A stretch of DNA of 64,000 nucleotides, from IMG/VR virus record IMGVR_UViG_3300006217_002764. One strand, written 5' to 3'. The notes beneath the pieces were generated by a model, which made no database searches, was not told the DNA's origin, and saw only the letters and a program-made list of their open reading frames with translations. How positions within the stretch are numbered: the first letter of the stretch is position 1; each line of letters opens with the position of its first letter. A program made the position numbers and the translations under genes. Shown here in pieces: positions 7,843 to 56,155 of the stretch. The DNA comes from a virus (Duplodnaviria > Heunggongvirae > Uroviricota > Caudoviricetes).

Positions 7843-7851
7843 GAGCGAACA

Positions 7852-8559
7852 ATGACTGGGAAAGAACCGACGAAACTCACCCTCATCGACACACCACTAG
7901 GGCACACCGCCTGGAACATGGACGATAACAACCTACTGCTGGTGTCCAGTGAAAACGAGCAGGAGACCACTGGGCTGTTGACGCGAATGGCCCAACAGGT
8001 GCGAAAGATGGGAGGGCGCGCGGTGTGCGCGGACACGGAACACGATTGGCCCACCCCGGGCCAGGGTGTCGATTCCGTCAAACCACGACAGTATGAATTG
8101 CTTCGCGCATACTGCGCACTGGCCCATGCCGTAGCACAGGTACGTGCCGAACAAGCTTCTCTCGCATATCCACCCTTCGTCATATTCATCGACCATTTCG
8201 ATCTGATGATGATGCGGGTCAACGAGCAGCCAACCCCCCACAAGACGGCCGGCATCCTACACGACATGCAACAACAGCTGGCCTCGATCATGTCCCATAC
8301 GGGAGTTGGGGTCGGTGTCGTGTTGTGCGCACAGAAGTTCGACACAGGTGTTCAGGCTGCCACGAAATGGGTTTTCCCGGAATGGTTGGATTCCGCCGAC
8401 CGTGTGCATGTCGATAAGCAGGGGCACATCCGTATCGAGCAGGGGGATGTGGACCTTTCCCTCACAATTCAGGATGAGGGGGCGGCATACGACCTGCTGA
8501 TGGAAGCCTTGATGGACGCCTTGCAACGGTTGAAACACACAGGAACAGAGGAGGAATAA
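7852..8559 (+). CDS. hypothetical protein
   Basis: 235-aa ORF. Weak Walker-B-like FVIFIDHFD. No clear family. Confidence 0.5.
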   Translation: MTGKEPTKLTLIDTPLGHTAWNMDDNNLLLVSSENEQETTGLLTRMAQQVRKMGGRAVCADTEHDWPTPGQGVDSVKPRQYELLRAYCALAHAVAQVRAEQASLAYPPFVIFIDHFDLMMMRVNEQPTPHKTAGILHDMQQQLASIMSHTGVGVGVVLCAQKFDTGVQAATKWVFPEWLDSADRVHVDKQGHIRIEQGDVDLSLTIQDEGAAYDLLMEALMDALQRLKHTGTEEE

Positions 8560-9174
8560 ATGTCGTACCAGTCTTGGCTTGACGCATGGAACGCGTATAA
8601 GGATTCAAAACAACCTGTCTGGCAGTACATCAGCGAACACGGGTGGGATGCCAAAACATGGTCATGGCTCGTCCCCTCGGCCGCCATGGCCCTGCTCATC
8701 CTCGCTGTCGTCGTATGTCTTGCCGGTGGCGCTATCCACAAGTTGCGAGTGAAGCGCGCCCCGGTCGAACAGCATGCGGACGTCGCCCTCAAGACGAAGA
8801 TCGACAACATTCCTTGGCTGCTGTGGGCTGTCGCGTCATTCATCCCTCTAGGTTTGACCATGATCGCGCTCCCCGACATAGGTTTCAATCCGGTTTCCAT
8901 CCAGACCGTCCAAGAACCCGTGTCGTTCACGCAATATGTCGAACAAGCCACGGGCACCCGTGACCTGACCTGCACCAAGGGAACCGGTGAGGAAACCTCC
9001 ACAATCGGCCCCTATGAGGATGCTGTGCCTGCCACGGGGTTCTACCAGTGCAACGCGATCCTCAAGGACGGTTCCATCCCAAACCTGACCCTGCACGTAG
9101 ATCAGGAGGCCCGTGAGTTCACTCTGGCGGATGCGGCCGCCGGGCAACCAGTGACAGAGAAAGCCTATCGATGA
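8560..9174 (+). CDS. membrane protein
   Basis: Two predicted TM helices (LVPSAAMALLILAVVVCLAGGAI and ASFIPLGLTMIAL). Confidence 0.5.
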   Translation: MSYQSWLDAWNAYKDSKQPVWQYISEHGWDAKTWSWLVPSAAMALLILAVVVCLAGGAIHKLRVKRAPVEQHADVALKTKIDNIPWLLWAVASFIPLGLTMIALPDIGFNPVSIQTVQEPVSFTQYVEQATGTRDLTCTKGTGEETSTIGPYEDAVPATGFYQCNAILKDGSIPNLTLHVDQEAREFTLADAAAGQPVTEKAYR

Positions 9175-16247: not shown

Positions 16248-16583
16248 CTACGACTGCTTTTCTAACGTGGCCTCATGGGCACGCACATCCTGATCGACCT
16301 GCGCCACAATCTCCTCGACGATGCGCCGCAATTCCGGATTCTGCTCCAGGTCGAAACCATACGCCCGGTTGAACGGTCCCTTGACGTTCATGTATTTGGA
16401 TGAGGACATGTCCACACGGCTCACTCGCCAACCATCATCGCCGCGGTCAAGGATGGCGAACACTGTCCTCCCCAATCCGAAGATGCCATCGGGTCGCGTG
16501 ACCTCGATGGGCTGGTGAAGTCTTCGTGTCACCTCGACATGGACTCGACGGCTTTCCATGACTCCACGTGACATGCTAATCAT
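16248..16583 (-). CDS. hypothetical protein
   Basis: 111-aa ORF overlapping the next gene by 8 nt. Confidence 0.4.
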   Translation of the reverse strand: MISMSRGVMESRRVHVEVTRRLHQPIEVTRPDGIFGLGRTVFAILDRGDDGWRVSRVDMSSSKYMNVKGPFNRAYGFDLEQNPELRRIVEEIVAQVDQDVRAHEATLEKQS

Positions 16584-20971: not shown

Positions 20972-21235
20972 CCTATCCAAACCGTTGCAAAACCAAGGTT
21001 CTGCAACATTAGGGAACCCGAAAAACTTCAGCTTGCCCCACACGCGTGGACATGACCACCTTGCGGCGGTCAGCTTCAAGTCTCACACCACCAGTTCGAC
21101 GGCTGCTTGATAGGCGTTTCATCGAACCTGTCCAGCAAACCCGAAGGTGGCTGGCACTGGGTTCTCCACGCCCGTTGTCCGTATCCGCCACACTCTCGAA
21201 AAGTGTGGTTCGTGTCCTGCACAAGCCTCTTATGC

Positions 21236-21266
21236 AGCTGTCTTCAGTATAGCACATACATGTTTA
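21236..21266 (-). promoter_or_regulatory. conserved promoter motif upstream of the CRISPR-like array
   Basis: Minus-strand reading gives catgtatgtgcTATACTgaagacagc. Partial match to the element-wide motif. Confidence 0.4.
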
Positions 21267-21482: not shown

Positions 21483-21932
21483 GTGGGAATCATGGCTGAC
21501 GTGTTCGATGTCGCGGCGTACATCCTGAACAAACAGGGACGCATGACGACGATGAAATTGCAGAAACTCTGCTACTACGCGCAGGCATGGCATCTGGTAT
21601 GGGCGGAGAAACCACTGTTCGACGAACCCATTCAAGCGTGGGCGAATGGCCCGGTATGCCCAGAACTGTACCAAGCACATAAAGGGAAGTTCGACATCGA
21701 TGCCCGTGAGCTTCCACAGGGCAACCCGCAGGCATTGACGGATCGAGAACGCAGGGACATCGACGAGGTTCTACGTTTCTATGCGCCCATGGGAGCCTAT
21801 CACCTCAGTGAACTCACCCATCATGAGGATCCCTGGAAGGATGCCCGCGGGGACCTACCGGTAGGGGCCAGATGCAATACGGTCATAACCTTGGCCGCAA
21901 TGGCCGAATATTACGGTTCTATCACTGACTGA
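21483..21932 (+). CDS. Panacea-domain (SocA/GepA-like, DUF4065) protein, putative antitoxin
   Basis: Hallmark KLQKLCYYAQAWHLVW plus downstream conserved aromatic and Pro residues. Confidence 0.65.
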   Translation: MGIMADVFDVAAYILNKQGRMTTMKLQKLCYYAQAWHLVWAEKPLFDEPIQAWANGPVCPELYQAHKGKFDIDARELPQGNPQALTDRERRDIDEVLRFYAPMGAYHLSELTHHEDPWKDARGDLPVGARCNTVITLAAMAEYYGSITD

Positions 21933-22492: not shown

Positions 22493-23521
22493 TCACGCTC
22501 GCATTTTATCGTCGATGCTGATTGGGTCGAGTATGTGCACGACGCTTCCGGTGTTCAGGCTTTTGTAGGTCAGTTGGCGGGTGAATTCGGCGAATGCCGC
22601 GTCCGTGAGGCTTTGCGCGAGCATGTGGTGTCGCATGCCGCGTTTGATGTTGACTTTCTGTATGTTGATGACGGCGTATTGGTCCACAAGCCGGCGGGTC
22701 AATTCGTGCAGCATCGTGTCACGCAACGCTTTGATGCGCTTGTGGATGCGGTTGACCTTGCGGCGTTGCTCCTCGTAGCGGACGCTTCCACGGGCTTTGC
22801 GTGACAGGTCACGGGACGCCTTGCGCAACCCCTCCAACGCCTGCCGGTATGGTCGCGGCAGATCGATCCGGGTACCGTCCGACAGGATGATGTGTTCCAA
22901 GGTGAACACGCACCAGATGTCGGGTTTTGTGTTCACGGGTGGCGCCGGTTCGGGGGTTTCGCACAATAGGCTCGCGTACCATGTGTCGTGTTCGCAACGG
23001 ATGGTGGTGGTTTTCACCTTGCGGCCGGCCACGAGCCGGTGGATGTTGCGCAAGGTGTGCACGCGTCCGATGCGGGGCAGTCTGATGCCATGGTCGTCGG
23101 GGATGGTGATGGCGCTGAATGCGAACGATTTGACCGCGCTACGGGGTTTGAACTTGGGGAAGCCGACGGGGGATCCTTTGCGTTTGCCTGACAGGCTTTT
23201 GAGGAAATTGCTGGATGCTTTGCCGAGGTTGTCGAACGCGCAGTTATAAACCTGTGAGGCGACCTCATCCCACCATGGGGCCAACCGGTCGCGGTTGGCG
23301 CGCCACCAGTAGCCGAGTTTGATGACATTGTTGTCGATTTTGATGAGGTCTTTCTTGCCGACGCCTGATTCGACCTGCGCCTTGCGCTCCTCCAACTGTT
23401 CCTTCATATGTTGCAACGCGGCGTTGTACGCGAAACGTGCCGCGCCCGCGTACATGCGGAACATGCGCTCTTGTACGGGGGTGGGGTCGAGCGGGACTTT
23501 CACCGCCTCATACGTGGTCAT
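22493..23521 (-). pseudogene. tnpB: TnpB-like gene truncated before the zinc finger
   Basis: N-terminal TnpB signature VKVPLDPTPVQERMFRMYAGAARFAYNAAL and RuvC-II region INIQKVNIKRGM...LTDAAFAEF. The ORF stops right after ILDP, where the YTSQ..C..CG zinc finger should follow. Confidence 0.55.
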
Positions 23522-24479: not shown

Positions 24480-25075
24480 GATGCCTCCTTACTGGCGTGG
24501 TCGTACAAATACAATGCGTCCCGTTTGACCTCCACCCGTTCCAGCATGTCGCCCAATTGGCGGGTGTCGAACCCGTGCGAGCAGACCAGGTGGTAGCCGT
24601 TGATAGTGGCGATGACGGTGACCGCGCCCGGCGCCTCACTCTCCTCGTAGATGCGTTCGATGCGCCGGCGCAACGCTTCGGCACGGATCCAGCTTGGATC
24701 GTCCACGTCGAGCAGCCAGTGGCGTTCGGCGCGTTGTTCGGGTTGCATGGCGACGCTCAGGGCCATCTGATCGAGGGTGGCCATGTCCATGTCCGTCGTG
24801 TCGATGAGCACATGCATGAGCGCGGTGCGAGTCTTCGCGTTGTCGCGTGCGTTGACAGACACGTAGAAGCGGCTCACCTCGCCCGGTTTGCCTTGGTTCA
24901 CGAACCGGGTGAACCGGTCGCGCAGTTCGAAGGGTCTCTTGCGGGTCAGGAACGACTCGCACCGTTCTACGAACCCGTCCACCTGTTGGTTGTCCTTGCG
25001 GCGGGAACGGAACAGGACACCATGCAACGGACGGCTGTCGGCGGTGATGCGTTTGGGATGGTAATGGTTGCTCAT
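24476..25075 (-). CDS. hypothetical protein
   Basis: 199-aa ORF. ATGA overlap with the kinase-ligase gene. Confidence 0.45.
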   Translation of the reverse strand: MSNHYHPKRITADSRPLHGVLFRSRRKDNQQVDGFVERCESFLTRKRPFELRDRFTRFVNQGKPGEVSRFYVSVNARDNAKTRTALMHVLIDTTDMDMATLDQMALSVAMQPEQRAERHWLLDVDDPSWIRAEALRRRIERIYEESEAPGAVTVIATINGYHLVCSHGFDTRQLGDMLERVEVKRDALYLYDHASKEAS

Positions 25076-26805
25076 GATGCGGTCTCCTTGTCATGGTGGG
25101 CCAGCCAGTCGGTGACTTGGGTCATGTCCACCGCATCCCGGTCGAATGCGCTTTGATGGTAGACGAGTTGTTCGCGTGGGATCGCAGCCAACACGGCCCG
25201 CACCAACCGCGAGCGTTCCGAATCGTCCTGCGGGACGGGCTTGCCGCGCAGCAGGATGTTCTCCAGTACGGGGCGCAAACGTTTCGACTGGAGGTACAGG
25301 TCGGATTTGACTTTCACCATGTACCCGTCCGCACCGTAGATGACCACGCCCTCGCGTGATGATAGGGCCGCATCATGCAAGGCTTGGCGCAGTCCGGTCT
25401 CGTCCTGAATCATGTACCAGTCTGGACGGTACGGAAACAACGTGTTCAACAGGCTGTCCGCCTGCATGTCGATGGCGAATTCCACATGGTTGTGGATTGC
25501 ATGCAGGTAATACAGGCGTGACTTGTCGTAGTGGATGATGTGCTGGTCGGATTCCGCGTCCACGATCTCACAGGCCACGGTGACATCATGCGCACGCATG
25601 GTCTGCCATATCTCATGCCGCGTGTATGGGTCGGGCAGGTCACGGAGGAACGCTTTCTCAATCAGCGGCGAATAGTCGGTCTGGCCGCTCTTCGAATAGA
25701 AACGGAACACGCCCTCCTGTTCGGTTGCGCCGATCAATCCGAGGAAACCGTTCTCCTTCATCTCCACGCGCGCCGGGTACGTCATATGTTCCAGCACGTT
25801 GTCAAGACTGGTCTGCTTGTTCTCCCCGAGGTTGAAGAACTTGTCGAACCCACGCATCACCACGTCACCGGCGCTGTTGAGGAACAGGCCGCGGGCCTTC
25901 GACGAGTATTCGTCCCATGCGTGGTTGCGGAACGCGTCCCGGGTGAAATTGCACGCCCATAGATCTTCCTCGCCACGTACCGGCATGACGCGCACATTCG
26001 GGTTGTCGCGCATCTGGTCCAACAGGGTCGGTTCCGGTTCGGGGCAGGGCAGGTCGTCCGTGTTGCTCATCCGCCAGTCCAACCACTGTTGCGATGCACC
26101 GTGGCACAGCCAAGTGCAGTACACGTCGGACGGCATGAGTGGATTGTTCACCGCGGGCACACACAGCATGTCAGCGGTGTGGTTGCGGCCGTGCTGGGAG
26201 GGGAGAAACGCTTTGACCATGCGGAACGTGTCCACGCTCAACGGTTTGCATGCCATCCGGTACGCGCCCATCGCGTCGACCAACGCGAATGTGTGGCTGT
26301 GTTCGCTGGGACGCCACATGTGGCGTCCGGCGGGTTCGACGGGCACATGCACCCACTGCATGGGTGTGGAGATACTGTCCGTATACCGTTCGTACTGGGC
26401 CCGCAAATACTCCTCGGGCACCTGGTCGTCCTCGGCGCGATGGCGGTTGCGTTCCAGCAACGTGTCCAACGGTACGGGGAATGCCACGGTTTGCACGTCC
26501 GCGTTGCAGTCGGCGGCCAACCCTACCAGTTCATGCACGCGTTCCATGTTGGCGTTCTGTGCGTCCATGATCACGTTCAGGCCTTTGCGCAACGCGTCGC
26601 AGACCATGGCGTGCGCCGTACGCACAATCAGTTTCTCTGTTGTCGCAGTGCGATGCGCATGGTAGGCGGCCAGACTTCCCGCCGTCATACGTCGCAACCC
26701 ATCCAAGGACACGATGATCGTATCTGGATGGTTCGTCACGCACTTGCGCGCCCATGTGCTTTTGCCGCTCGCGGGCAGCCCGCGCAGGATGACCAACGTC
26801 GCCAT
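25072..26805 (-). CDS. polynucleotide kinase (P-loop) fused to RNA ligase (nucleotidyltransferase)
   Basis: N-terminal Walker A VILRGLPASGKSTWARK (T4 Pnk/AAA_33-like kinase). C-terminal ligase motif I KENG (RVEMKENGFLGLIG). Confidence 0.6.
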   Translation of the reverse strand: MATLVILRGLPASGKSTWARKCVTNHPDTIIVSLDGLRRMTAGSLAAYHAHRTATTEKLIVRTAHAMVCDALRKGLNVIMDAQNANMERVHELVGLAADCNADVQTVAFPVPLDTLLERNRHRAEDDQVPEEYLRAQYERYTDSISTPMQWVHVPVEPAGRHMWRPSEHSHTFALVDAMGAYRMACKPLSVDTFRMVKAFLPSQHGRNHTADMLCVPAVNNPLMPSDVYCTWLCHGASQQWLDWRMSNTDDLPCPEPEPTLLDQMRDNPNVRVMPVRGEEDLWACNFTRDAFRNHAWDEYSSKARGLFLNSAGDVVMRGFDKFFNLGENKQTSLDNVLEHMTYPARVEMKENGFLGLIGATEQEGVFRFYSKSGQTDYSPLIEKAFLRDLPDPYTRHEIWQTMRAHDVTVACEIVDAESDQHIIHYDKSRLYYLHAIHNHVEFAIDMQADSLLNTLFPYRPDWYMIQDETGLRQALHDAALSSREGVVIYGADGYMVKVKSDLYLQSKRLRPVLENILLRGKPVPQDDSERSRLVRAVLAAIPREQLVYHQSAFDRDAVDMTQVTDWLAHHDKETAS

Positions 26806-26832: not shown

Positions 26833-27570
26833 TCAGCGGTGCCGTTTCAGCGTGGGATGCGGCTCCGGCGGGAAGGAGATCAACCGTTCCGCGTCGACGA
26901 AATGCCACAGCACCTGTTCCTCGCTCACCGGCCGCATGTTCCATGCGTCCACACCGATGTTGAGCTCACGCGGGTTGGCGAACTCGAACGGGTCCGTGGA
27001 GTGTGTATGCCCGTGCAGCAGCCAGCTGAAGCCGTTGTCCACGAACGCATACTGGGCGTATTGCGGGTCGCATGCGTTCGTGCTCAACCCGCTGGGCGTG
27101 GGCTGTTCGAAATGGTGGCGGAATTGGAAGTGCGACAAGAGCACGTTGAGTTTGCCGATGGTGGTCGCACCCCCGGTATCGACGGTGACGAACACGTCCA
27201 ACAGTTGCCGCATCTGCGAGTATCCGCAGCGCAGGTCCTCATGGTTACCGAGGATCAGGTGCCGCCTGCCGCGTGGCACGCGCAGCCCTTCGAGGGTTTG
27301 CAACGCGCCGGTCAGGCTTGCCCGTCCGCCGGTGCTCAAGTCCCCCAGCACGTAGAGTTCGTCTTCCTCCCCGACCCGTTCGTTGATGTTGTCGATGATG
27401 GTGTGGTCGTGGCGCTGCCAGTCCACCATGTCAGCGAGTTTCCAACGGTTCGTGCGCGCGTATTCGCGTAGGTCGGCGGCGGCCAGATGCGCGTATTCAG
27501 GTTTTGCGTATCCACGCAACGCGGCCACGAACGGGTGGTGCAAATGCAAATCGGAAGTGAAATACTTCAT
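26833..27570 (-). CDS. calcineurin-like metallophosphoesterase
   Basis: Motifs SDLHLHH, YVLGDLS, GNHE and GHTH. Start MKYFTSDLH at 27570. Confidence 0.7.
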   Translation of the reverse strand: MKYFTSDLHLHHPFVAALRGYAKPEYAHLAAADLREYARTNRWKLADMVDWQRHDHTIIDNINERVGEEDELYVLGDLSTGGRASLTGALQTLEGLRVPRGRRHLILGNHEDLRCGYSQMRQLLDVFVTVDTGGATTIGKLNVLLSHFQFRHHFEQPTPSGLSTNACDPQYAQYAFVDNGFSWLLHGHTHSTDPFEFANPRELNIGVDAWNMRPVSEEQVLWHFVDAERLISFPPEPHPTLKRHR

Positions 27571-27583
27571 GGCTTGTTCTCCC

Positions 27584-28030
27584 TTAGTCTTTGCTGATGG
27601 ACTCGTCGATGGGGGCCCAACCAGTGTTCTCGTCGTACAGGTCGCGCACGGACCATGCATCATTGACGAACAGGTACACGTATTCGGCCCACATGCCACG
27701 TGCGGCCTCCACGAATGCGTCACGGTCCACATATACGGCGGCCTGCATGGCATCATTCTTGCCGTAGGTGCTGGCGGCCGCTGTTTTCGAAGGCGGATAG
27801 CCGTTCTTGTCGATGTCGCGGCGTTTCTCCGCATCGTCCATGAATGCGGCAGGCGTCTGCCCGAGCACGTCGATCTCACCCAACGCCATGAGCTCCTCCA
27901 CTTGCACCCCATCTGTGTAATGGTCGCGCAACACTTTCCCGTTGTATGACGGGTACCCGTCGCACTGGCAGTAGATGGCCGTGATGGAACCGTCCCCATG
28001 CTGCATGCCGATCAAGCTACGAGTAGTCAT
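27584..28030 (-). CDS. hypothetical protein
   Basis: ORF immediately upstream of the phosphoesterase. Confidence 0.4.
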   Translation of the reverse strand: MTTRSLIGMQHGDGSITAIYCQCDGYPSYNGKVLRDHYTDGVQVEELMALGEIDVLGQTPAAFMDDAEKRRDIDKNGYPPSKTAAASTYGKNDAMQAAVYVDRDAFVEAARGMWAEYVYLFVNDAWSVRDLYDENTGWAPIDESISKD

Positions 28031-28954: not shown

Positions 28955-29030
28955 TCCTGTGGTTTTGTGGATAATCTCAGTATAGCACATATATCGCATG
29001 TTCTCCCCCGGCGTGTTCTCCTATACTGGA
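28955..29030. promoter_or_regulatory. divergent conserved promoter motifs
   Basis: ttgtggataatctcagtatagcacatat (minus promoter) and cctatactggaaccatccacaaaa (plus promoter for the hydrolase). Confidence 0.5.
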
Positions 29031-31717: not shown

Positions 31718-31830
31718 ATGTGTGACCCTTTCCGTGGTTTGTGGACAAGTTCAGTGTAGCATATTATGGATGTAATGCCGGTATAGGCCAGTACAATAAA
31801 CAACCAACGCAACCCGATGGGAGGGCGGAC

Positions 31831-32802
31831 GTGACTACAAAGAAAACCGATGGGAAACACAGCGGCAAACCACCGATCCCGATGACCATGCGGCAACTCG
31901 AACTCGCCGCCGACATCGACACGCATACCCCCACACCGCAACAGGTCGGCTACGGTCATTCGATTCTCACCGCGACCCTTTACCCCGCCGTCCCCCCGGC
32001 GCCCGGCACTGACTTCGTCTCCAAACGCAACGGCAGTTTCGAATACATGCTCGAGGCGGGCGTGGATGAAGAGACCCATGAACGAGATTTCCCATATGGC
32101 AAATACCCGAGGCTCATCATGGCGTGGATGGCGAAACAGATACGTTCCGCTCATGGCCATAGGACGGACACGGTGGACCCCGAGACGAGGACCATCACCA
32201 TCCCCACCATCAACCGCCTATGTGACGAGATGGGTGTGGGACATGGCGGCAAGACCGCAGAAGCGGTGCAGGAGCAGTTGAGGCGATTGCTTGCGGCGCG
32301 CATCAGCGTCCGCCGTCGTGGGGGCTTCTCCGAGCGGAAGGGCAACAAGGTCAGCCAGATCCTCTACCTGCCGTTCGCCCGCGCCATCGAGTATACGGAC
32401 GATGAGCGGGGGCGTGCCTATTCGGGTGCGAGGTTCATATTGACGGAGGACGCGTATGAACGGCTTAAATTGGAGAGTGCCCCGTTTGACACGAGGGTCA
32501 GCGAGTATCTGTTGGCAGGACGTTCTGTGATGCCGTATGACCTGTATCTGTGGCTCAACGGGTCGATGGCGGGGTTGACCCATCCGGTCACGGTGTCATG
32601 GGAATGGCTGTATGAGCAGTTCGGTGATGGGATTGCGAGTATGAGCCGGTTCAAGGCGACGTTCAAGCGTGCGTTGGCGAAGGTGCTGGAGGTGTATCCG
32701 GCTGCGAATGTGTCGGTTCCCCCGCGGGGCGAGGGTGTGGTGCTCAAGCCGTCGTTGACAAGTGTGGAGATGCGTGATCCGAAACATGGTTTGTCGCGAT
32801 AG
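31831..32802 (+). CDS. putative replication initiator (Rep-like DNA-binding protein)
   Basis: GTG start after RBS GGGAGGG. The gene ends inside the first iteron copy and is followed by a tandem iteron array and an AT-rich stretch. No catalytic motif. Confidence 0.45.
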   Translation: MTTKKTDGKHSGKPPIPMTMRQLELAADIDTHTPTPQQVGYGHSILTATLYPAVPPAPGTDFVSKRNGSFEYMLEAGVDEETHERDFPYGKYPRLIMAWMAKQIRSAHGHRTDTVDPETRTITIPTINRLCDEMGVGHGGKTAEAVQEQLRRLLAARISVRRRGGFSERKGNKVSQILYLPFARAIEYTDDERGRAYSGARFILTEDAYERLKLESAPFDTRVSEYLLAGRSVMPYDLYLWLNGSMAGLTHPVTVSWEWLYEQFGDGIASMSRFKATFKRALAKVLEVYPAANVSVPPRGEGVVLKPSLTSVEMRDPKHGLSR

Positions 32803-41078: not shown

Positions 41079-41390
41079 ATGAGGATACTAACCACCAGAG
41101 AGTACGAGCGCTGGCTCTCGAAACTCAAAGACAAACAAGCGAAAGCGCGAATCATCCTCAAAACAAACCAGATCCAGCAAAGCGGCATCAAGACCGCCGA
41201 CTTCAAACACGTGGGACGGGAGGTTCTGGAACTGCGGTTCCACTTCGGAGCCGGATACCGCGTATATTGCGCCACCAAGCAAGACACCCTGCTCCTGCTG
41301 CTCACAGGCGGAGACAAAAGCTCCCAGCGCAAGGACATCGAAACCGCTCAACGGCTTCTGGATGAAGCCAGAAAGGAACATCAATGGTGA
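41079..41390 (+). CDS. HigB/RelE-superfamily addiction-module killer protein
   Basis: REYERWLSKLKDKQAKARI...VGREVLELRFHFGAGYRVYCATKQDTLLLLLTGGDKSSQ matches the addiction-module killer family. Confidence 0.6.
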   Translation: MRILTTREYERWLSKLKDKQAKARIILKTNQIQQSGIKTADFKHVGREVLELRFHFGAGYRVYCATKQDTLLLLLTGGDKSSQRKDIETAQRLLDEARKEHQW

Positions 41391-41671
41391 ACATCAGCGA
41401 ATGGGACGCCAGCGAATACCTCGACGACGAGGAAACCATCCTCGAATACCTCAACGCCGCCGCCCAGGCAGGCGACCCCCGGCTGCTCCAAACCGCACTT
41501 GGGGACGTCGCCAAAGCACGTGGCATGGCACAGGTCGCCAAAGACGCCGGAGTCGGCCGTGAAAGCCTGTACAAGAGCCTCAGCCCAAGTGGCAACCCAT
41601 CGTTCGGCACGATCATGAAAGTCGTACGTTCTTTGGGCGGGCGCATCACCATCGAACCCGCCGCCGTCTAA
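41384..41671 (+). CDS. HigA-type HTH antidote protein
   Basis: ATGGTGA overlap with the toxin gene. DPRLLQTALGDVAKARGMAQVAKDAGVGRESLYKSLS matches the addiction-module antidote family. Confidence 0.6.
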   Translation: MVNISEWDASEYLDDEETILEYLNAAAQAGDPRLLQTALGDVAKARGMAQVAKDAGVGRESLYKSLSPSGNPSFGTIMKVVRSLGGRITIEPAAV

Positions 41672-42021
41672 CCCGGAAAACTGCGGCTGCCCCGTCCGAA
41701 CATGTGTCGGACGGGGCAGCCGTGGTAGAGAAAATGCCGGCACGACAAAACATGCCGGACGACACAAGTTAGCGTACCACAATCCGGCACCAGCACCGGC
41801 GGGCAGCTGCGCGATCAGCGCCGTATGCAACGGCAGACAGGAACGGATACGGCTGGCGGTTCGACAGTTGAGCACAACAAAAGGGTGTGATAGCCGAAAC
41901 TTCCAGCCATCACACCCTGAAATACCCTTTGGTTGTTTAATGTCAACGAAAACACCCAAGGAGCACAAACCAGTATAACACGTTTAGATACTAACAGCAG
42001 CCCAAATCCCGCCCATGCTGG

Positions 42022-43299
42022 TCACCACTCGTCGCGCAGGCGGTCCAGTTCGTCGAACGGTGCCGCCAGTTGCATCATGTAATCCGCCTGCCTGCTCTCA
42101 TCGGCCTCGTTGAACACGTCCATGCCATGCTCATCCCTCGTCGGAAGGTACACATGGAACCGGTCGAGCATTCCCTCATGTTCCATGTATACGTGCAATG
42201 CGTCAAGGAAATACGGCGAATGCGTCGTGACCAGCACCTTGACATCCATGCGTTGCGCCATCATCACCAGTATCTTCGCATAGCTGAGCTGCCATTTGGG
42301 ATGCAGATGGATTTCCGGCTCGTCCAATATCAGCACCGTGCCCGCCCTGACCACGCCAGTGGATAGCAGCCGGTGCAGCATCAGGAGGGATTTGACACCC
42401 ATGGACGCGTTGTGCAGTTTCAACGCCTCACCATCACGCACATCCAACGTCCGATCGCGGAACTGCCGCCCCTGCATATCTGGGCGCCTGTCCAACGAAA
42501 CTGGTGTGATGTGTTCGATCGCGCGCATCACCTCCAGCACCCTGTCGTCCGGCTGCCACTCCTCCACGATCGCATTGTGGGTGGCGTCCGTGATCGCCCG
42601 CAACGCCACATGACGATCGTCCTCGCGGGGACGGCCGTACAATACATGACCGTACAAGCCGGTCAGGTTCTCGATCAACGCCGGGGTGTCCACCCACACC
42701 GCGTTCGGTCCCGCGAACGAGTCCCCGTCGAAAACATGGTCATCCGGCATGTCCCATGACATCGATGTCACCGCCCCGTCATCGGTATGCAACGCCAGAC
42801 GATGCCCCTTCCCATAGCCATCCACACGGGACAACGCATCCTCGTCGAACAGCGAGGACAAGCGCAGGTCGATCTGGGATGCCGCGTACTCCGTCAACCG
42901 CATGTTCACTGCGGCTTCGATCTGCGCGCGGACGGCATTGACGTCTTGCATCCGGATGCCTTCACTGTGCAAGGCAGTGATGAAATCCTCCACATCCATG
43001 TCTGTCGATTCCATAAACCGATCGGTCTGCTCATGCACCTGAAGGACCGTCTGCCGCCGCTGAGCCCATGTCTCGTCCTCATCCGACGGGACCATCCCGC
43101 TTTGCACGGCCTGTCGTATGGCCCGGCGTGTGGCATCCGTCATGCGCCGATCCAAGTCGAACCGTCCGTCGATCAACGCCAACGCCGCCTTGCCTATAGT
43201 GGACTTGCCCGTGTTGTTCTCACCGGCGATGACCGTGACCCCATCAAGCCTGATATGCGCTTCAGCGATACGACCGATTCCCATGACCTCAAGTTCCAT
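42022..43299 (-). CDS. AAA_21/ABC-like ATPase of the OLD/Gabija/PARIS ATPase class
   Basis: Walker A GENNTGKST, Walker B/D-loop LILDEPEIHLHP, and H-loop VTTHSPYFL. Confidence 0.6.
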   Translation of the reverse strand: MELEVMGIGRIAEAHIRLDGVTVIAGENNTGKSTIGKAALALIDGRFDLDRRMTDATRRAIRQAVQSGMVPSDEDETWAQRRQTVLQVHEQTDRFMESTDMDVEDFITALHSEGIRMQDVNAVRAQIEAAVNMRLTEYAASQIDLRLSSLFDEDALSRVDGYGKGHRLALHTDDGAVTSMSWDMPDDHVFDGDSFAGPNAVWVDTPALIENLTGLYGHVLYGRPREDDRHVALRAITDATHNAIVEEWQPDDRVLEVMRAIEHITPVSLDRRPDMQGRQFRDRTLDVRDGEALKLHNASMGVKSLLMLHRLLSTGVVRAGTVLILDEPEIHLHPKWQLSYAKILVMMAQRMDVKVLVTTHSPYFLDALHVYMEHEGMLDRFHVYLPTRDEHGMDVFNEADESRQADYMMQLAAPFDELDRLRDEW

Positions 43300-43364
43300 G
43301 CCGACCATTCAGCCGTCTCCCGTCGATAACTTCCATGCCGCCAAACGGATTGCCTACAAGCCGT

Positions 43365-43529
43365 TCACTCCACCTGTAATCTGCGCCGGCGTTCATGTTC
43401 TTTCTTGGCCGCCTCAATGAAATCCTTGGTGAAGGAACGCTCGAGGCTGTCCCAGTACTGTCTTGCGTTCAAATTGCGTCCGGTGGGCGCGGTCGGCTTC
43501 CGGGGCGTGTTCGACATGCTTCCGATCAT
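43365..43529 (-). CDS. small basic protein, tandem paralog A
   Basis: 54 codons ending ...FTKDFIEAAKKEHERRRRLQVE. About 70% identical at the DNA level to the adjacent copy. Confidence 0.3.
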   Translation of the reverse strand: MIGSMSNTPRKPTAPTGRNLNARQYWDSLERSFTKDFIEAAKKEHERRRRLQVE

Positions 43530-43720
43530 TGCGTTGACCTTTCTTTCACCGCTGCCGATGGGATTGGGCAAGGGCCACCGGCCTGCATTCGCCGTCGCCG
43601 CTCGTATTCCTTCTTGGCCTTTCGAAGGAAATCCTGGTTGAACGATCGTCGCAGACTCTCCCCGTACTCTTTCGGGGTCAGGCCGCGTCCGGTGGGCGCG
43701 CTCGGCTTGTCGGGTGTGGG
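43526..43720 (-). CDS. small basic protein, tandem paralog B
   Basis: MSGTMPPTPDKPSAPTGRGLTPKEYGESLRRSFNQDFLRKAKKEYERRRRMQ... paralog of A. Confidence 0.3.
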   Translation of the reverse strand, partial: PTPDKPSAPTGRGLTPKEYGESLRRSFNQDFLRKAKKEYERRRRMQAGGPCPIPSAAVKERSTQ

Positions 43721-43759
43721 CGGCATGGTTCCGGACATTTGAGGCACTCCTTGCTGGCG

Positions 43760-43855
43760 GGATTGTTCCTTGTAGGACGGCCCGGAATCGAACCGGCGCC
43801 ACCACCCGAGCACGAATGGTGACGAACCTGCTGTACCGCCCTGGATACCGACCGG
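43760..43855 (-). other. tRNA-like fragment (T-arm plus acceptor present, no clean cloverleaf)
   Basis: GGTTCGATTCC T-loop and a pairing acceptor (agggcgg/ccgtcct). The internal region has direct rather than inverted repeats. Confidence 0.3.
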
Positions 43856-44042
43856 CGTCTAGAATCCGGTCGGAGAACCCGGTCCCAGTCATCCTCCCTT
43901 GCCGCCATTGTCTCCTCCGCAACAGAGGGGGCCGCCGGGTCGAGAGGCTCCCGTTCTCCCACGTTCGCAGCCAATACTCCTCCCCGTCTTCAATCGGGGG
44001 AACAGCTACCCGTTCGGTGAGATCCCGGACGGAACCGGATTC

Positions 44043-44115
44043 GTGGGCTGGCGGGATTCGAACCCGCGACCTCCGGATTAAACGTCCGGTGCTCTGTCCT
44101 CTGAGCTACAGCCCC
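44043..44115 (-). tRNA. tRNA-Lys(TTT)-like with unusual G33 (anticodon loop cgTTTaa)
   Basis: Hand-folded. D-stem gctc/gagc, anticodon stem ccgga/tccgg, T-arm gcggg-TTCGAAT-cccgc. 1:72 is G:A. Confidence 0.45.
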
Positions 44116-44256
44116 GCGCATGCCCACCGTCATGATCGGCCGGATATGCGGGATGCGTTCACCATCGCCTTATGGTGTTGCCGAAGATGGCGTGTCTTCG
44201 ACCGTTCCGATCTTTAATAGGATCGTAGACGAGCCTGCACCAAGGCCCGACCTGCG

Positions 44257-44325
44257 TGGGGCGGCCGGATTCGAACCAGCATCCGCTAGCGCTCTGCCAT
44301 TTGAGCTACGCCCCCGGTGGGATGG
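44257..44325 (-). other. truncated tRNA-like element (acceptor, D-arm and T-arm but no anticodon arm)
   Basis: About 64 nt. gggggcg-ta-gctcaaatggcagagc...gctgg-TTCGAAT-ccggc-cgcccc. Confidence 0.35.
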
Positions 44326-44413
44326 CGATCAACCCATCCCCTCCACCTGCACCGATACCGGTGGGGCCCCGTATTGGCGGGGCCATCGGCTCGGGGATAC
44401 CGGTCCGATCGGA

Positions 44414-44484
44414 ACCGGAATCGCACACCGGGATGGAATCGAACCACCGCCTGCGGTTTTGGAGACCGCCGTCCTACCATTGGA
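44414..44484 (-). tRNA. tRNA-Trp(CCA)
   Basis: Hand-folded. Anticodon loop ctCCAaa on stem gcggt/accgc, D-stem gtcc/ggac, T-loop TTCGATT, acceptor with two G-U pairs. Confidence 0.55.
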
Positions 44485-44659
44485 CCACCGGCATATATGG
44501 TGCGCGTCCCTCATGGGCAACGCACCACCGTCCCATGCGTCCGCCTACCATCACGACCTATAGCCACGCCCCTTGATGGGCACAACAACGCCGCTCGGCA
44601 AGCCGACCACACGGGCCCGCATCCAAAACCGTCAACTGGCGTTCCGGTTGGATGCCTCG

Positions 44660-44732
44660 CAGGCGAGGCAGGATTCGAACCTGCAACCCACGGTTCCAAA
44701 GACCGTCGTGCTGCCAATTGCACCACTCGCCT
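44660..44732 (-). tRNA. tRNA-Gln(TTG)
   Basis: Acceptor aggcgag/ctcgcct perfect, D-stem gtgc/gcac, anticodon loop ctTTGga, T-arm gcagg-TTCGAAT-cctgc. Confidence 0.6.
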
Positions 44733-44947
44733 ATACCATGCGGCCTATGCGGCCGCGATGGTCACGGTTTGCGCGCCCAATCACCCGCTGGGCACCCTCC
44801 GCCGGTGCCGGAGGAGACGGACATTGCCCGCCTGTACGCCACCATGCTCTGCTTGGTCTGCCACGACAAGGTGGATGCCGCGGGAAGCCCGTATCATGGA
44901 CCCCTATGCCTGCCCATTGGACGCCGGGCAGGTGGCGTATCCTTTCG

Positions 44948-45020
44948 TGCTTTCGGCGGGATTCGAACCCGCGGCCTTCCGCTCCGGAGGCGGACGCCCT
45001 ATCCACTGGGCCACGAAAGC
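44948..45020 (-). tRNA. tRNA-Arg(CCG)
   Basis: Acceptor gctttcg/cgaaagc perfect, D-arm gccc-agtggata-gggc, anticodon loop ctCCGga, T-arm gcggg-TTCGAAT-cccgc. Confidence 0.65.
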
Positions 45021-45059
45021 GTAGTGTCCAGCGCCGTGCCAACGGCTGTGCACGTGCCT

Positions 45060-45110
45060 GATACGCACCGTGCGTGGAATCGAACCACGATCGGGATCGC
45101 CACCATAACC
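45060..45110 (-). other. tRNA fragment (isolated T-arm hairpin)
   Basis: cgtgg-TTCGATT-ccacg without matching acceptor or D-arm. Confidence 0.3.
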
Positions 45111-45233
45111 CGGTCGCCGCCCCCGCACCCCATACCGGGAGGGGCCGCACCACCAACCACACCGCTTTCATATCAGTACTCACGGCCAGCCGCGTGCGCA
45201 ACCGGTTCACAGCGCTTTCCAGCTCTGGACTCG

Positions 45234-45307
45234 TGCCCCCGGCAGGATTCGAACCTGCGACCGGACGGGTAGAAACCGTCTGCTCTGATCCACTGAGCTA
45301 CAAAGGC
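45234..45307 (-). tRNA. tRNA-Arg(TCT)
   Basis: D-arm gctc-agtggat-cagagc, anticodon loop ttTCTac on stem gacgg/ccgtc, T-arm gcagg-TTCGAAT-cctgc, acceptor with three G-U pairs. Confidence 0.55.
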
Positions 45308-45538
45308 AATCTCTTTCCCCCCGAGCGTATGAGTACGACCACCCGAGGGGAAAGAGCTGGAATGCCGGATTCGTTTTCACCAGCAGCGCCAAGGTACGGT
45401 GCGTGAGCTCCGTTTTAAGCGTACCGTCCGTTAGGTTACTAGCCTGACTGTGAAGCCCGAACGTGCCTTGCCCTCCATACCGTAGGGCGTTTCAGCCAAT
45501 TCCATGGACACCGAGTGATGGCCGTCACCCGGTGCCTG

Positions 45539-45613
45539 TGCTTCCCACGGGATTCGAACCCGTACTGAACTGGGTTTGAGCCAGTCACCTCTACCGGATT
45601 GGGTTAGAGAAGC
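45539..45613 (-). tRNA. tRNA-like with anticodon CAA (Leu codon UUG) but short variable arm
   Basis: Anticodon stem actgg/ccagt perfect with loop ctCAAac. T-arm acggg-TTCGAAT-cccgt. D-stem has one mismatch. Class-I architecture is atypical for Leu. Confidence 0.4.
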
Positions 45614-45712
45614 GTGACCACCTACCCCGCCTGACACGGAGCCGGCCAGCCGTCAGGAAACCAGCCTTCCATAATCGTGGCATCACAGCCGATGATCGAA
45701 CTGCTTCTTTCG

Positions 45713-45785
45713 TGCTCCCCGTGGGACTCGAACCCACAACCCAAGGCTTAAAAGGCCCCTGCTCTACCAATTGAGCTAGAAAAGC
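45713..45785 (-). tRNA. tRNA-Lys(TTT)
   Basis: D-arm gctc-aattggta-gagc, anticodon loop ctTTTaa, T-arm gtggg-TTCGAGT-cccac, acceptor with G-U pairs. Confidence 0.55.
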
Positions 45786-45817
45786 AATGGTGCACAAAAT
45801 AACCTAATCAGATTTTG

Positions 45818-45848
45818 CGAACATGTTCAGTTTAGCACATATAGACGA
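45818..45848 (-). promoter_or_regulatory. conserved promoter motif at head of tRNA array
   Basis: Minus-strand reading gives atatgtgcTAAACTgaacatgttcgc, 30 nt upstream of the first tRNA 5' end. Confidence 0.45.
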
Positions 45849-45898
45849 CCTCTGCAAATCTATGTACATCTCCTTGTTTTGGATCATCGGTATGCGGA

Positions 45899-47599: not shown

Positions 47600-48790
47600 T
47601 TATGAGTCGTGCGGATCGCTAACGATACGTTCGGCTTCGTTTCGTATGTTCAGCGCGGCGTTCACATCCCGATCGTGGAGAGTACCGCACTGCGGGCATG
47701 CCCATTCACGTATGGACAGGTCCTTTACCGCACGATTGCGGTATCCGCACGTATGGCATAGTTGGCTGGACGGGTACCATGCGTCCACTCGGATGAATTG
47801 TTTTCCGGCGTGTTCGAGCTTGTAGCGCAACAGGTCGCAGAACATGCCATACCCGTTGTCGAGCGTGCTTTTCGCCAGCCCGCTTTTCGCTGTGCGCCCG
47901 TTCGGTAGATACCTGTTCGGGTCGTGCGGGTCGGTTTTGGGTTTCGGCCTGCGCGTCATACCTTGCAGATTCAAGCTCTCCACGGCGATGGCGTCACAGC
48001 TCGCGACGAGTTTGTTCGCGGTCTTGTGTTGGAAGTCCCGACGACGATTCGCTGTCTTTTCGAACAGGCGGGCGACTCGTATGCGTTGTTTCCTCCAATT
48101 GGCCGAGCCTTTCACCATATGTGCCAGGCGACGTTGCTCGCGCGCCAAGCGTGGTTCCATGTCACGGTAGTATCCGGGGTATTGGGCGTGTTCGCCTTCG
48201 CTGGACACATACAGGCCGTGGGATGCGTAGTCCAGTCCGATGATGTGCGCGGGCGGTGTCGGGTCAGGCATTTGGTTCTCATGCTCGAACAGCACCGTCA
48301 CGATGTACCTGTCGGATCGGGTGTGTTCCACGGTCGCTGATTTGAGTTTCCAGTCGGCGGGAATGTGTTTGTGTTGACGGACGGTGACCCATCCCAGTTT
48401 CGGTAGTCGTAGCCTCCTTGCGTTGTCGGACAGGCGGATGCTGTTGTTGATCGAGTTGGTGGTGTATGCGGCTTTCGAGTGATGCTTCGACTTGTATTTC
48501 GGGAACCCCGCGTGCTTATGGTCGAAGAAGTTCCGGTATGCCTTTTGCAGGGCGAGTTGCGCGTTGCACAACGCCATGCTGTCCACTTCGCGCAGGAACG
48601 GGTATGCGTCCTTGTACATGGCGGGTGTGGGATTGCATGATTCCCACGTGGTCTGATAGTGCGCGATGCGGGTTTCGAGCATGAGGTTGTACACGAACCG
48701 GGTGCAGCCGATGGTGCGGTCGATCATGGCCGCCTGTTCCCGGGTGGGGTATGCGCGGAACCTGACGGCGGTGTGCTGTGTGATGTTCAT
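47600..48790 (-). CDS. tnpB: TnpB (IS605 OrfB, RuvC-like plus zinc finger)
   Basis: N-terminus AVRFRAYPTREQAAMIDRTIGCTRFVYNLML. RuvC motifs IGLDYA, AVESLNLQGM and DVNAALNI. Zinc finger CHTCGY...CPQCG. Confidence 0.8.
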   Translation of the reverse strand: MNITQHTAVRFRAYPTREQAAMIDRTIGCTRFVYNLMLETRIAHYQTTWESCNPTPAMYKDAYPFLREVDSMALCNAQLALQKAYRNFFDHKHAGFPKYKSKHHSKAAYTTNSINNSIRLSDNARRLRLPKLGWVTVRQHKHIPADWKLKSATVEHTRSDRYIVTVLFEHENQMPDPTPPAHIIGLDYASHGLYVSSEGEHAQYPGYYRDMEPRLAREQRRLAHMVKGSANWRKQRIRVARLFEKTANRRRDFQHKTANKLVASCDAIAVESLNLQGMTRRPKPKTDPHDPNRYLPNGRTAKSGLAKSTLDNGYGMFCDLLRYKLEHAGKQFIRVDAWYPSSQLCHTCGYRNRAVKDLSIREWACPQCGTLHDRDVNAALNIRNEAERIVSDPHDS

Positions 48791-49218
48791 ACGTCGCGTT
48801 CCTTGCCTTGGTTTTCGATGTAGCGGCGTATCACTTCGATGGGTGCGCCTCCCGTGGTGAGCAGGCAGAAGCTGCGGCTCCAGAAGTATTCGCGCCACAG
48901 TTTCTTGCGTATTTGCGGATACTCCTGTTTAAGCAGGCGTGAGCTGGCGCTTTTGTACGCGTTGATGAACTTCGACAACTCGCTCTTGGGTTGGGCGCGG
49001 AACAGGACGTGCACGTGGTCGAGGTCATGGTTCCATTCCTCGACGGTTATCCCGTACTTGGGTGCGATGTACTCGAAGATTTCCCGCGCGCGAGCGGAGA
49101 TTTCGTCGTCGAACACTTTGCGCCGGTATTTCGTGACGAGCACGAGATGATAATGCATGAGGAACACCGAATGATGATTCGACTCCAGTTTCACTACTAT
49201 CACCTCGCTTTCAAGCAT
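48787..49218 (-). CDS. tnpA: IS200-type Y1 HUH transposase
   Basis: HUH motifs HYHLVLV and HVHVLF, plus the catalytic Tyr region. ATGA overlap with tnpB. Confidence 0.8.
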   Translation of the reverse strand: MLESEVIVVKLESNHHSVFLMHYHLVLVTKYRRKVFDDEISARAREIFEYIAPKYGITVEEWNHDLDHVHVLFRAQPKSELSKFINAYKSASSRLLKQEYPQIRKKLWREYFWSRSFCLLTTGGAPIEVIRRYIENQGKERDV

Positions 49219-56122: not shown

Positions 56123-56155
56123 GTTTGTGGATAATCTCAGTATAGCACATATGGA
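56123..56155 (-). promoter_or_regulatory. conserved promoter motif
   Basis: ttgtggataatctcagtatagcacatat on the plus strand, a near-identical copy of the 28955 instance. Confidence 0.5.

Follow-up and report, generated by a model that had tools for sequence, protein, structure and literature searches.

Why should a mobile element carry a handful of tRNA genes of its own, and why should some of the tRNA-shaped RNAs encoded among them have no anticodon? We consider this question for a tRNA array in a 64,000-nucleotide stretch (hereafter the window) of the IMG/VR virus record IMGVR_UViG_3300006217_002764. Our analysis places the window in a conjugative megaplasmid family of about 135 kb of Bifidobacterium pseudolongum, of which the Bifidobacterium megaplasmid pMP7017 is a distant relative. 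The main interest of the locus lies in two conserved anticodon-less tRNA mimics within the array and in the RNA repair genes that reside on the same element.

ARAGORN finds exactly seven tRNAs in the window, all on the minus strand and within 44043-45785, and the Rfam tRNA model RF00005 agrees, scoring each of them at 53-72 bits (E 1e-8 to 7e-14; gathering score 29). A first-pass annotation of this DNA had folded seven tRNAs by hand, and the anticodons are exactly as it named them:

45712-45785, minus strand: tRNA-Lys(UUU), copy 1 (ARAGORN; Rfam 64.6 bits)
45538-45613, minus strand: short tRNA with the anticodon CAA, 'Leu' (ARAGORN; Rfam 53.1 bits, one non-standard D-stem pair)
45233-45307, minus strand: tRNA-Arg(UCU) (ARAGORN; Rfam 64.4 bits)
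44947-45020, minus strand: tRNA-Arg(CCG) (ARAGORN; Rfam 72.3 bits)
44659-44732, minus strand: tRNA-Gln(UUG) (ARAGORN; Rfam 68.3 bits)
44423-44494, minus strand: tRNA-Trp(CCA) (ARAGORN; Rfam 61.4 bits)
44043-44115, minus strand: tRNA-Lys(UUU)-like gene, hereafter Lys2 (ARAGORN; Rfam 59.2 bits, 1:72 pair flagged)

Six of these look canonical, with a full cloverleaf, G18G19, a GGUUCGAxUCC T arm and a normal anticodon loop. None of the array tRNAs encodes CCA; the discriminator base is followed by C and then by unrelated sequence, as in the arrays of the pMP7017 family. The T-loop motif G[GT]TC[GA]A[ATG]TC has ten minus-strand copies between 43793 and 45733, seven in the tRNAs and three more at 45085, 44276 and 43793, which agrees with the earlier claim of at least three further elements that keep a T arm. 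Together with an eighth RF00005 match this bears out the picture of an array in which intact tRNAs are mixed with tRNA-like elements. Long plus-strand open reading frames (ORFs) lie over the array (44652-45272, for example, which some contigs have as a gene call); we took them to be spurious, as they cross tRNA genes in antisense where the DNA is rich in G+C. The three additional elements are as follows:

44256-44315, minus strand: 60-nt tRNA-like RNA, hereafter frag8 (Rfam RF00005 36.7 bits; pairing in 11 variants)
43773-43842, minus strand: 70-nt tRNA-like RNA, hereafter element (c) (predicted fold of -36.2 kcal/mol; pairing in five variants)
45073-45089, minus strand: T-arm remnant, hereafter remnant (b), CGTGG-TTCGATT-CCACG (T-loop pattern; T-stem paired at 5 of 5 positions)

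To compare these elements we used related loci, gathered by look-ups of the ATPase gene that adjoins the array and by one metagenome pattern scan, which yielded 25 loci with versions of the cluster. The eighth RF00005 match, frag8, has an acceptor stem, a D arm and a T arm, but in place of the anticodon arm of a canonical tRNA (13 model positions are absent) it has a stem of 2-3 bp capped by CUAG in all 11 variants. Every stem position is paired in these 11 distinct variants, which come from 15 loci, and four of the pairs vary. Compensatory changes are found at two of them: a T-stem pair occurs as C:G, U-G or U:A and never as C-A, and a mini-stem pair alternates between G:C and A:U, although the mini-stem is palindromic and a symmetric change there is also possible through template switching at the DNA level. 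The observed pairing or covariation score was reached by 2 of 500 column shuffles, in an alignment that is biased by the pattern used to collect it (fixed motifs TAGCTCAA, CTAG and GGTTCGA) and whose sequences are mutually related. Bases 1 (G or A) and 72 (A or G) are unpaired throughout.

Element (c) combines an acceptor-type stem of 8 bp, a hairpin of 12 bp and a T arm of 4 bp whose loop is UUCGAUU. It lies at the boundary between tRNA and mRNA, where 35 nt separate its 3' end from the start codon of the gene that follows. In its five distinct variants all 120 stem cells are paired (120/120), through nine variable pairs that each change on one side only by way of G-U; one-sided changes of this kind are neutral only on the strand that bears the tRNAs. 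In Rfam it has only a weak match to tRNA-Sec (16.6 bits), and it is absent from the array type represented by loci L003 and L010. Remnant (b) is also found in locus L028. It has no Rfam tRNA match at E<=10, and we rejected it as a full tRNA-like element, its best acceptor candidates being no better than background. The description of these pieces as tRNA-like fragments is thus apt for remnant (b), a T arm without an acceptor, but not for frag8 and element (c), whose conserved stem pairing distinguishes them from debris. On comparative evidence the latter two are conserved, structured tRNA-shaped RNAs without an anticodon loop.

The loci compared are all closely related, so that conservation by itself says little. 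The case for maintenance, as read from the alignments, rests on a contrast: frag8, element (c) and the six canonical-looking tRNAs keep their pairing, and Lys2 does not. In Lys2 the anticodon loop is C-G33-UUU-A-A and G1 stands opposite A72, which is followed by C, so that the U33 and the paired 1:72 of a canonical elongator tRNA are both missing. The 1:72 position is unpaired in 12 of 12 variants, among which we found no compensatory change; instead, uncompensated G->A changes occur at acceptor positions 2, 3 and 4 in different lineages, and indels in the anticodon loop or the T-stem are present at 9 of the 15 loci. Lys2 is therefore probably a decaying or non-decoding copy under relaxed constraint, and the 'duplicated Lys-TTT' of the first-pass annotation is no true duplicate. 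The idea that its G33 makes it a nuclease-resistant variant was rejected because of the uncompensated decay in the family alignment; a role as a decoy stays conceivable. The other lysine gene, Lys copy 1, has the canonical loop C-U-UUU-A-A and an acceptor stem (GCUUUUC/GGGGAGC) with three consecutive G-U pairs. It is identical in L003 and L056 and differs by 1-2 nt in the variants of L013, L028 and L059.

Among the remaining tRNAs, Gln-UUG is found in every array variant that we examined, Arg-CCG has 80% identity to its counterpart in the array of a B. longum megaplasmid, and variants of Arg-UCU elsewhere differ by pair changes in the acceptor and T-stem with pairing mostly kept. Trp-CCA has A1:U72, U2-G71, a G3-U70 wobble and G73; a second type of Trp tRNA in related arrays has G3:C70. 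The G3-U70 pair is the main identity determinant for AlaRS. The CAA tRNA is 76 nt long and of class I, with a variable region of 5 nt and A73, whereas bacterial tRNA-Leu normally belongs to class II and has a long variable arm. The CAA tRNA is most similar to short 'Leu' tRNAs (AAG, UAA) of the pMP7017-family arrays, at 74-81% identity, and another short CAA tRNA type occurs in other array variants. Short class I tRNAs of 74-77 nt with A73 and the Leu anticodons CAA, AAG or UAA recur across Bifidobacterium megaplasmid arrays, at the following positions elsewhere:

L001, 5022-5098 and 8926-8999: short 'Leu' tRNAs
L002 (pMP7017), 7187-7263 and 8926-8999: short 'Leu' tRNAs
L031, 1808-1882: short 'Leu' tRNA

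LeuRS does not read the anticodon, and one short scaffold bears three Leu anticodons, which suggests, as far as sequence can tell, a true Leu identity.

The array varies in composition among relatives. Across the 25 loci, Lys-UUU, short CAA, Arg-UCU, Arg-CCG, Gln-UUG, Gln-CUG and Trp-CCA occur in at least six combinations. The second slot is occupied by the CAA tRNA in the window and by Arg-UCU in L003 and L013, between flanking spacers that are about 97-99% identical, and the 12-bp hairpin directly after this slot has kept its pairing through a change from G:C to A:U. The Trp slot of L003 and L013 contains a degenerate remnant only. On these alignments tRNA genes are exchanged like cassettes between conserved spacers, and the plasmid family, so read, shows birth and death of tRNA genes together with two retained non-decoding tRNA-like RNAs. 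In L007 an IS21-family element (transposase and IstB, 6047-8292) is inserted between Arg-CCG and Gln-UUG.

The spacers themselves are structured. Three inter-tRNA spacers fold better than shuffled sequences (z of -3.75, -2.76 and -5.27), and a hairpin ends 2-4 nt upstream of most tRNAs. On the minus strand, the spacers at 44116-44255, 44495-44658 and 45308-45537 are chains of hairpins, and their conservation equals that of the tRNAs. Between frag8 and Lys2, one of the spacer hairpins has been swapped for a different sequence with a hairpin of similar size (GATCCTATTAAAGATC vs AACCCGGAAACGGGTT).

The array would be transcribed from a promoter-like site 43 nt upstream of the first tRNA. The sites relevant to transcription are:

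45829-45857, minus strand: promoter-like site, -35 TTGCAG (45857-45852), 17-nt spacer and TG-extended -10 TGC-TAAACT (45837-45829)
5123-5133, plus strand: further TGTGCTATACT extended -10 box
21246-21256, minus strand: further TGTGCTATACT extended -10 box
28979-28989, minus strand: further TGTGCTATACT extended -10 box
56139-56149, minus strand: further TGTGCTATACT extended -10 box
41882-41918, minus strand: 17-bp terminator-like hairpin with a T run, the nearest one downstream of the array promoter on the same strand

The first-pass annotation had placed a copy of an element-wide promoter motif upstream of the array, and this is confirmed: the motif ATA-TGTGCTA[TA]ACT-GA has five copies in the window, the copy at the array reading TTGCAG-17 nt-TAAACT. 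A search of the window for the TGTGCTA[TA]ACT type with one mismatch allowed gives 7 matches where 0.38 are expected. A generic sigma-70 scan did not score the site at the array, because its -35 matches the consensus at only 3 of 6 positions, and the motif was recovered by direct pattern search; the consensus reported for bifidobacterial promoters is TTGACA-17-TATAAT (PMC10832533). Three copies of the motif (28989, 56149 and, in a looser version, 5123) are followed by a downstream box, GAGATTATCCACAAA, and then a ribosome-binding site; the shared box suggests a common operator or 5' leader. In L013 the DNA upstream is unrelated, yet the same TATGCTATACTGA box precedes the first tRNA. Our scan of the minus strand detected no terminator-like site between the array promoter and 41918.

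The assignment of the window to a plasmid rests on its replication and transfer genes and on the distribution of its relatives. Its RepA (31741-32802) is 46-51% identical, over 84-94% of the length, to the RepA of six Bifidobacterium megaplasmids of the pMP7017 family, the next-best match beyond this family being at 29% identity. Pfam identifies conjugation-type genes, namely an AAA_10 ATPase, an FtsK-like ATPase and a CHAP/lysozyme hydrolase. In the assembly collection, 930 blocks, of which many derive from mouse gut, contain an identical copy of the ATPase that adjoins the array, in every case on a contig of 200 kb or less, and a TnpB of the window likewise has no contig above 200 kb in that collection. 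A JGI contig of 134,775 bp matches the window at 100% identity over 5.5 kb, and in the B. pseudolongum isolate GCA_003464845.1 a separate contig of 133,675 bp (L013) has an 88%-identical ATPase directly after a variant array. The array is on every long contig of the plasmid family, which is seen in hundreds of samples and is widespread in mouse-gut samples. PLSDB has no close match to the window except for an IS200/IS605 element, and in 185,579 species-representative genomes we found neither an exact match to the frag8 60-mer nor a relative of the ATPase. The claim that the array is borne by a mobile element is thus upheld. A phage origin of the window was considered and dropped because its genes are plasmid-type; pattern searches of IMG/VR for frag8 and Lys2 also gave no match.

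The same window encodes a candidate set of RNA repair enzymes:

25072-26805, minus strand: fusion of a polynucleotide-kinase domain and an Rnl1-type RNA ligase, 577 aa (Pfam AAA_33 2e-25, RNA_lig_T4_1 3.5e-29)
26833-27999, minus strand: metallophosphoesterase, candidate end-healing enzyme (Pfam Metallophos 1e-5, weak)
6285-7394, plus strand: second RNA ligase, Rnl5-like, with an N-terminal OB domain and a nucleotidyltransferase domain (Pfam; PDB 5cot 7e-28)

By domain matches, the components of T4-type healing and sealing (5'-kinase, Rnl1 ligase and phosphoesterase) are all present. The PDB matches of the kinase-ligase fusion are T4 Pnk, Pnkp1 and the fungal tRNA ligase Trl1, and its homologs are found in 715 phage records and one B. 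longum megaplasmid; in the B. longum plasmid NZ_CP084013.1, which also has tRNAs, a metallophosphoesterase gene lies directly upstream of the kinase-ligase homolog. The second ligase is of the Naegleria/Deinococcus type and is 52% identical to an 'RNA ligase family protein' encoded 1 kb from the tRNA array of pMP7017. Megaplasmids of the pMP7017 family thus conserve both the phosphoesterase-ligase pair and the second ligase. In T4, Pnkp and Rnl1 repair tRNA-Lys(UUU) cleaved by PrrC (PMC10264068). The set in the window resembles this system in its kinase P-loop and Rnl1 ligase domains, in its adjacent phosphoesterase and in its presence on a mobile element with tRNA-Lys(UUU). It differs in that kinase and ligase are fused in 577 aa and the phosphatase is a separate metallophosphoesterase; its activity and substrate are predicted. 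The transcriptome paper on pMP7017 mentions neither RNA ligases nor anticodon nucleases (PMC10832533).

What, then, might the array be for? We tentatively favour, at somewhat less than even confidence, a role as insurance of translation against the loss of tRNAs to anticodon nucleases, in concert with the repair enzymes. The array region would be transcribed as one precursor, from which host RNase P and 3'-end processing enzymes would cut the tRNAs, and a host CCA-adding enzyme would complete them, which we propose because no array tRNA encodes CCA. A cut marked by element (c) would release the mRNA for the small ORFs and the ATPase downstream. The operon would in this way give the plasmid its own copies of a few tRNAs whose individual loss would make translation fail, and these copies would insure it against the anticodon nucleases of hosts, phages and competitors; the phosphoesterase with the kinase-Rnl1 ligase, and the second RNA ligase, could reseal tRNAs that have been cut. 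Extra capacity for the heavily used codons AAA, CAA and UUG would be a compatible second benefit. The repair set strengthens this anti-tRNase reading, which we infer and do not observe; published cases of replacement tRNAs and the variable defence genes in the array's 3' flank, both described below, also speak for it. Several points weigh against it. The decay of Lys2 in many relatives makes strong selection on the dosage of Lys-UUU less likely. Among the Pfam and PADLOC library matches in the window there is no tRNA-cleaving nuclease and no PrrC or RloC homolog. In the 49 window ORFs AGA makes up only 4% of the plasmid's Arg codons; Arg-UCU thus answers no strong codon demand, nor does it match a nuclease known from Bifidobacterium. 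The repair genes are 16-38 kb away from the array, and the putative link between them is one of co-residence only. Lastly, codon adaptation is the interpretation preferred in the published work on the pMP7017 array (PMC10832533).

Codon adaptation is also the chief rival explanation here. It holds that the array does no more than boost tRNAs of low abundance for a plasmid that is less rich in G+C than its host and makes greater use of A-ending or rare codons, with nucleases uninvolved. B. pseudolongum has about 63% G+C and should prefer AAG and CAG. The G+C content of the window is 53-62%, and in its 49 ORFs AAA accounts for 46% of Lys codons, CAA for 41% of Gln, TTG for 27% of Leu and CGG for 20% of Arg, exactly the codons that match the Lys-UUU, Gln-UUG, CAA and Arg-CCG tRNAs. 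Codon supplementation therefore fits the Lys, Gln and Leu members as well as nuclease insurance does, and it is the published reading for the pMP7017 array, which is transcribed (PMC10832533). Other members fit it poorly. Arg-UCU is present in most variants despite the scarcity of AGA, Trp has a single codon and so no bias to correct, and several variants carry Gln-CUG, the reader of the common codon; GAA makes up 57% of Glu codons, yet no Glu tRNA is carried. Nor does it explain the RNA repair genes on the same element. We regard codon supplementation by itself as possible but doubtful, and as a live alternative to the insurance reading.

A second alternative is that the array is the decaying remnant of a larger, pMP7017-like array of about 20 tRNAs and that its tRNA-like pieces are functionless pseudogenes. 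The relatives of pMP7017 do have 18-23 tRNAs and a transfer-messenger RNA (tmRNA), and decay is evident in the stem mutations and indels of Lys2, in the degenerate Trp slot of L003 and L013, in remnant (b) with its missing acceptor and in the IS21 element inside the L007 array. The rest of the cluster does not behave in this way: full cloverleaves persist in six tRNAs (53-72 bits), the stems of frag8 and element (c) stay paired throughout despite four and nine variable pairs respectively, the promoter box persists where the DNA upstream of it is different, and the array is on every long contig of the family. Decay as an account of the whole array is thus distinctly unlikely.

The genes downstream bear on a third alternative. 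They comprise the following:

43526-43738, minus strand: small basic ORF of 70 aa (AAGGAG ribosome-binding site; gene calls on identical contigs)
43365-43529, minus strand: small basic ORF of 54 aa, a tandem paralog of the 70-aa ORF (gene calls; homology)
42022-43308, minus strand: orphan ABC-type ATPase, AAA_21/AAA_15, 428 aa (Pfam)

In most array variants (L028, L033, L038, L055, L056, L059 and L064) the array is followed by a gene for a small basic protein of about 55-70 aa, whatever lies beyond it; these proteins have no Pfam or PADLOC match. The ATPase, from its position, may be co-transcribed with the array, and the two might be supposed to form one system, for example a tRNA-targeting defence in which the array provides resistant tRNAs for self-immunity. 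They lie on the same strand with no terminator between them, their adjacency is kept in L013, L033 and L038, and the ATPase belongs to a fold family common to AriA, PtuA and Old of tRNA-cutting systems (PMC12409363, PMC11555353, PMC12445682). Its PADLOC matches, however, are to generic ATPase subunits only, those of PD-T4-4 (PD-T4-4_A), PARIS (AriA), Septu (PtuA), Gabija and Old, and cover only the C-terminal ~80 residues of the models. PARIS, Septu, Gabija and Old-type systems have a nuclease effector adjacent or fused to the ATPase, and 42022-43308 has none. We accordingly rejected its identification as PARIS, Septu or PrrC, there being only generic ABC and AAA_15/21 matches and no AAA_13/PrrC signature. 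In relatives the ATPase is paired with a gene of 189-241 aa (241 aa in B. pseudolongum L013; also in L016, L020, a B. animalis chromosome and human-gut contigs), whose product matches nothing in Pfam or PADLOC. This effector-sized partner is cleanly missing from the window, and the ATPase is an orphan because the gene has been deleted there. The human-gut contigs and B. animalis have the ATPase and its partner but no tRNA alongside, and in the L055 and L063 variants restriction-modification or methylase genes occupy the position of the ATPase. The first-pass annotation was therefore right that the array lies upstream of an orphan defence-type ATPase, but the adjacency has no functional weight. 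A joint system is very improbable and largely refuted; judged from these comparisons, the 3' flank of the array is a variable hotspot of defence and anti-restriction genes and the ATPase a broken passenger in it, no partner of the array. In the flanks of two variants (L055 9277-11624; L063 3788-8299 and 12324-13196) an Eco57I-like methylase with an XhoI-family endonuclease, or EcoRI-like/C5 orphan methylases, adjoin the array.

That the window is ordinary chromosome and the tRNAs the host's own operon, which had been named as the outcome that would overturn the mobile-element interpretation, has no finding in its favour and a negligible probability, since the window has plasmid replication and transfer genes, the related contigs are all of 200 kb or less, neither the frag8 60-mer nor the ATPase was found in the 185,579 species-representative genomes, and the tRNA cluster has non-canonical members.

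Other features of the plasmid and its relatives may be mentioned here. The window has IS200/IS605 TnpB genes at 12157-13728, 22493-23521 and 47600-49218, one of them with a TnpA (48787-49218), and an Rfam Transposase-2 RNA match at 21049-21120 (minus strand), which is probably a TnpB guide-RNA region. At 21483-21932 (plus strand) is a Panacea-domain (SocA-like) antitoxin whose neighbours are unannotated, and at 41079-41671 (plus strand), just beyond the ATPase, a Gp49/HI1420 (HigBA-like) toxin-antitoxin pair. The related locus L003 has a RAGATH-18 Rfam match at 16282-16364. Three contigs (L075-L077; 35-111 kb), which come from the guts of wolf, cattle and other sources, have a secE-secG-secY cluster and an intein-containing anaerobic ribonucleotide reductase, and two of them also secA; they may be other large Bifidobacterium-like plasmids with translocon genes, as in relatives of pMP7017.

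If nuclease insurance is the purpose of the array, what might two RNAs that cannot decode contribute to it? tRNA-like processing signals and small RNAs are known elsewhere: mascRNA is cut from MALAT1, tufB of E. coli is co-transcribed with tRNAs, and the T4 tRNA cluster encodes small stable RNAs. Like these, frag8 and element (c) have the acceptor/T-arm helix that is recognised by RNase P and 3'-end enzymes. They have no sequence relationship to these RNAs (the Rfam mascRNA model scores only 18.7 bits, and on a true tRNA), and their processing is predicted. We speculate, and consider it unlikely on balance, that frag8 and element (c) are functional products of the operon, which could serve either as RNase P/RNase Z punctuation that frees the downstream mRNA or as decoys for toxins and nucleases that recognise the acceptor, T arm or elbow, within a plasmid-borne counter-measure of replacement, repair and decoy against tRNA-targeting immunity in gut bifidobacteria. 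pMP7017 (L002) has a weak 68-nt Rfam tRNA match of 34.5 bits at 6859-6926, missed by ARAGORN, so arrays of this kind may generally contain tRNA-like elements that are degenerate or non-canonical.

The closest studied system is the array of pMP7017, whose 20 tRNAs, 17 of them highly transcribed, form three transcription units and have been read as codon adaptation (PMC10832533). Both are unidirectional clusters on conjugative megaplasmids of the same genus, with short 'Leu' tRNAs and weak tRNA-like matches, and both plasmids have a related RepA (46-51% identity) and the 52%-identical RNA ligase. The arrays of the pMP7017 family, however, have 18-23 tRNAs for about 12 amino acids and a tmRNA (L001, L002) and lie next to repA, whereas in B. 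pseudolongum the cluster provides 5-7 tRNAs for five amino acids, at a distance of 11 kb from repA; neither ARAGORN nor Rfam detects a tmRNA in the 64-kb window. The best identities of its tRNAs to those of the pMP7017 family are 67-81%, often to a tRNA of another specificity, and gene order is not shared. Plasmid tRNA clusters are themselves already known, but anticodon-less conserved RNAs and combinatorial variants have not been described for pMP7017.

A tRNA array unit has been formally defined by at least 20 tRNA genes at a density of at least 2 per kb (PMC4758250). The B. pseudolongum cluster has the density, with seven genes in 1.74 kb, but falls short of the number, with seven ARAGORN tRNAs and eight Rfam matches. 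It is also far smaller than the arrays of Mycobacterium plasmids and phages, which have 20-40 tRNAs for nearly all amino acids, but with which it shares dense tRNA clustering on actinobacterial mobile elements (PMC5966550, PMC12803027). The redundant tRNAs of those arrays differ from the chromosomal copies, and an anti-defence role has been proposed for them (PMC5966550, PMC12803027). An anti-defence function is thus not a new idea for phage tRNAs and mycobacterial plasmid arrays (PMC10264068, PMC12803027). Replacement tRNAs are known from T5 tRNA-Lys/Thr/Asn against PARIS, T5 tRNA-Tyr against the retron Ec78 and a phage tRNA-Thr against P2 Old (PMC12409363, PMC11555353, PMC12445682, PMC10264068). 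As in these cases, a mobile element here has its own copies of a few specific tRNAs, Lys-UUU included. Compared with the site U36-A-A-U-C-A of E. coli AriB, Lys copy 1 differs at position 39 (G instead of U). In the T5-type cases the nuclease is known, its cleavage site has been mapped and rescue has been shown by experiment, whereas for the B. pseudolongum array protection from nucleases is a proposal; the host of the array is a Gram-positive actinobacterium and its carrier a plasmid rather than a lytic phage.

Clusters of tRNA genes on plasmids and phages are increasingly read as a counter to tRNA-cutting immunity, on evidence that comes nearly all from E. coli phages, and the only studied Bifidobacterium tRNA array had been read as codon adaptation. 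The B. pseudolongum array offers a compact test case in a culturable host, in which shuffled tRNAs, a decaying copy as an internal neutral control, two tRNA mimics and a phage-type repair set are found together. If nuclease protection proves false, the locus would be one more plasmid tRNA cluster serving codon supply. If it is true, the replace-and-repair logic of T4 and T5 would extend to the conjugative plasmids of a beneficial gut genus, and the two mimics would represent a new class of small tRNA-like RNAs.

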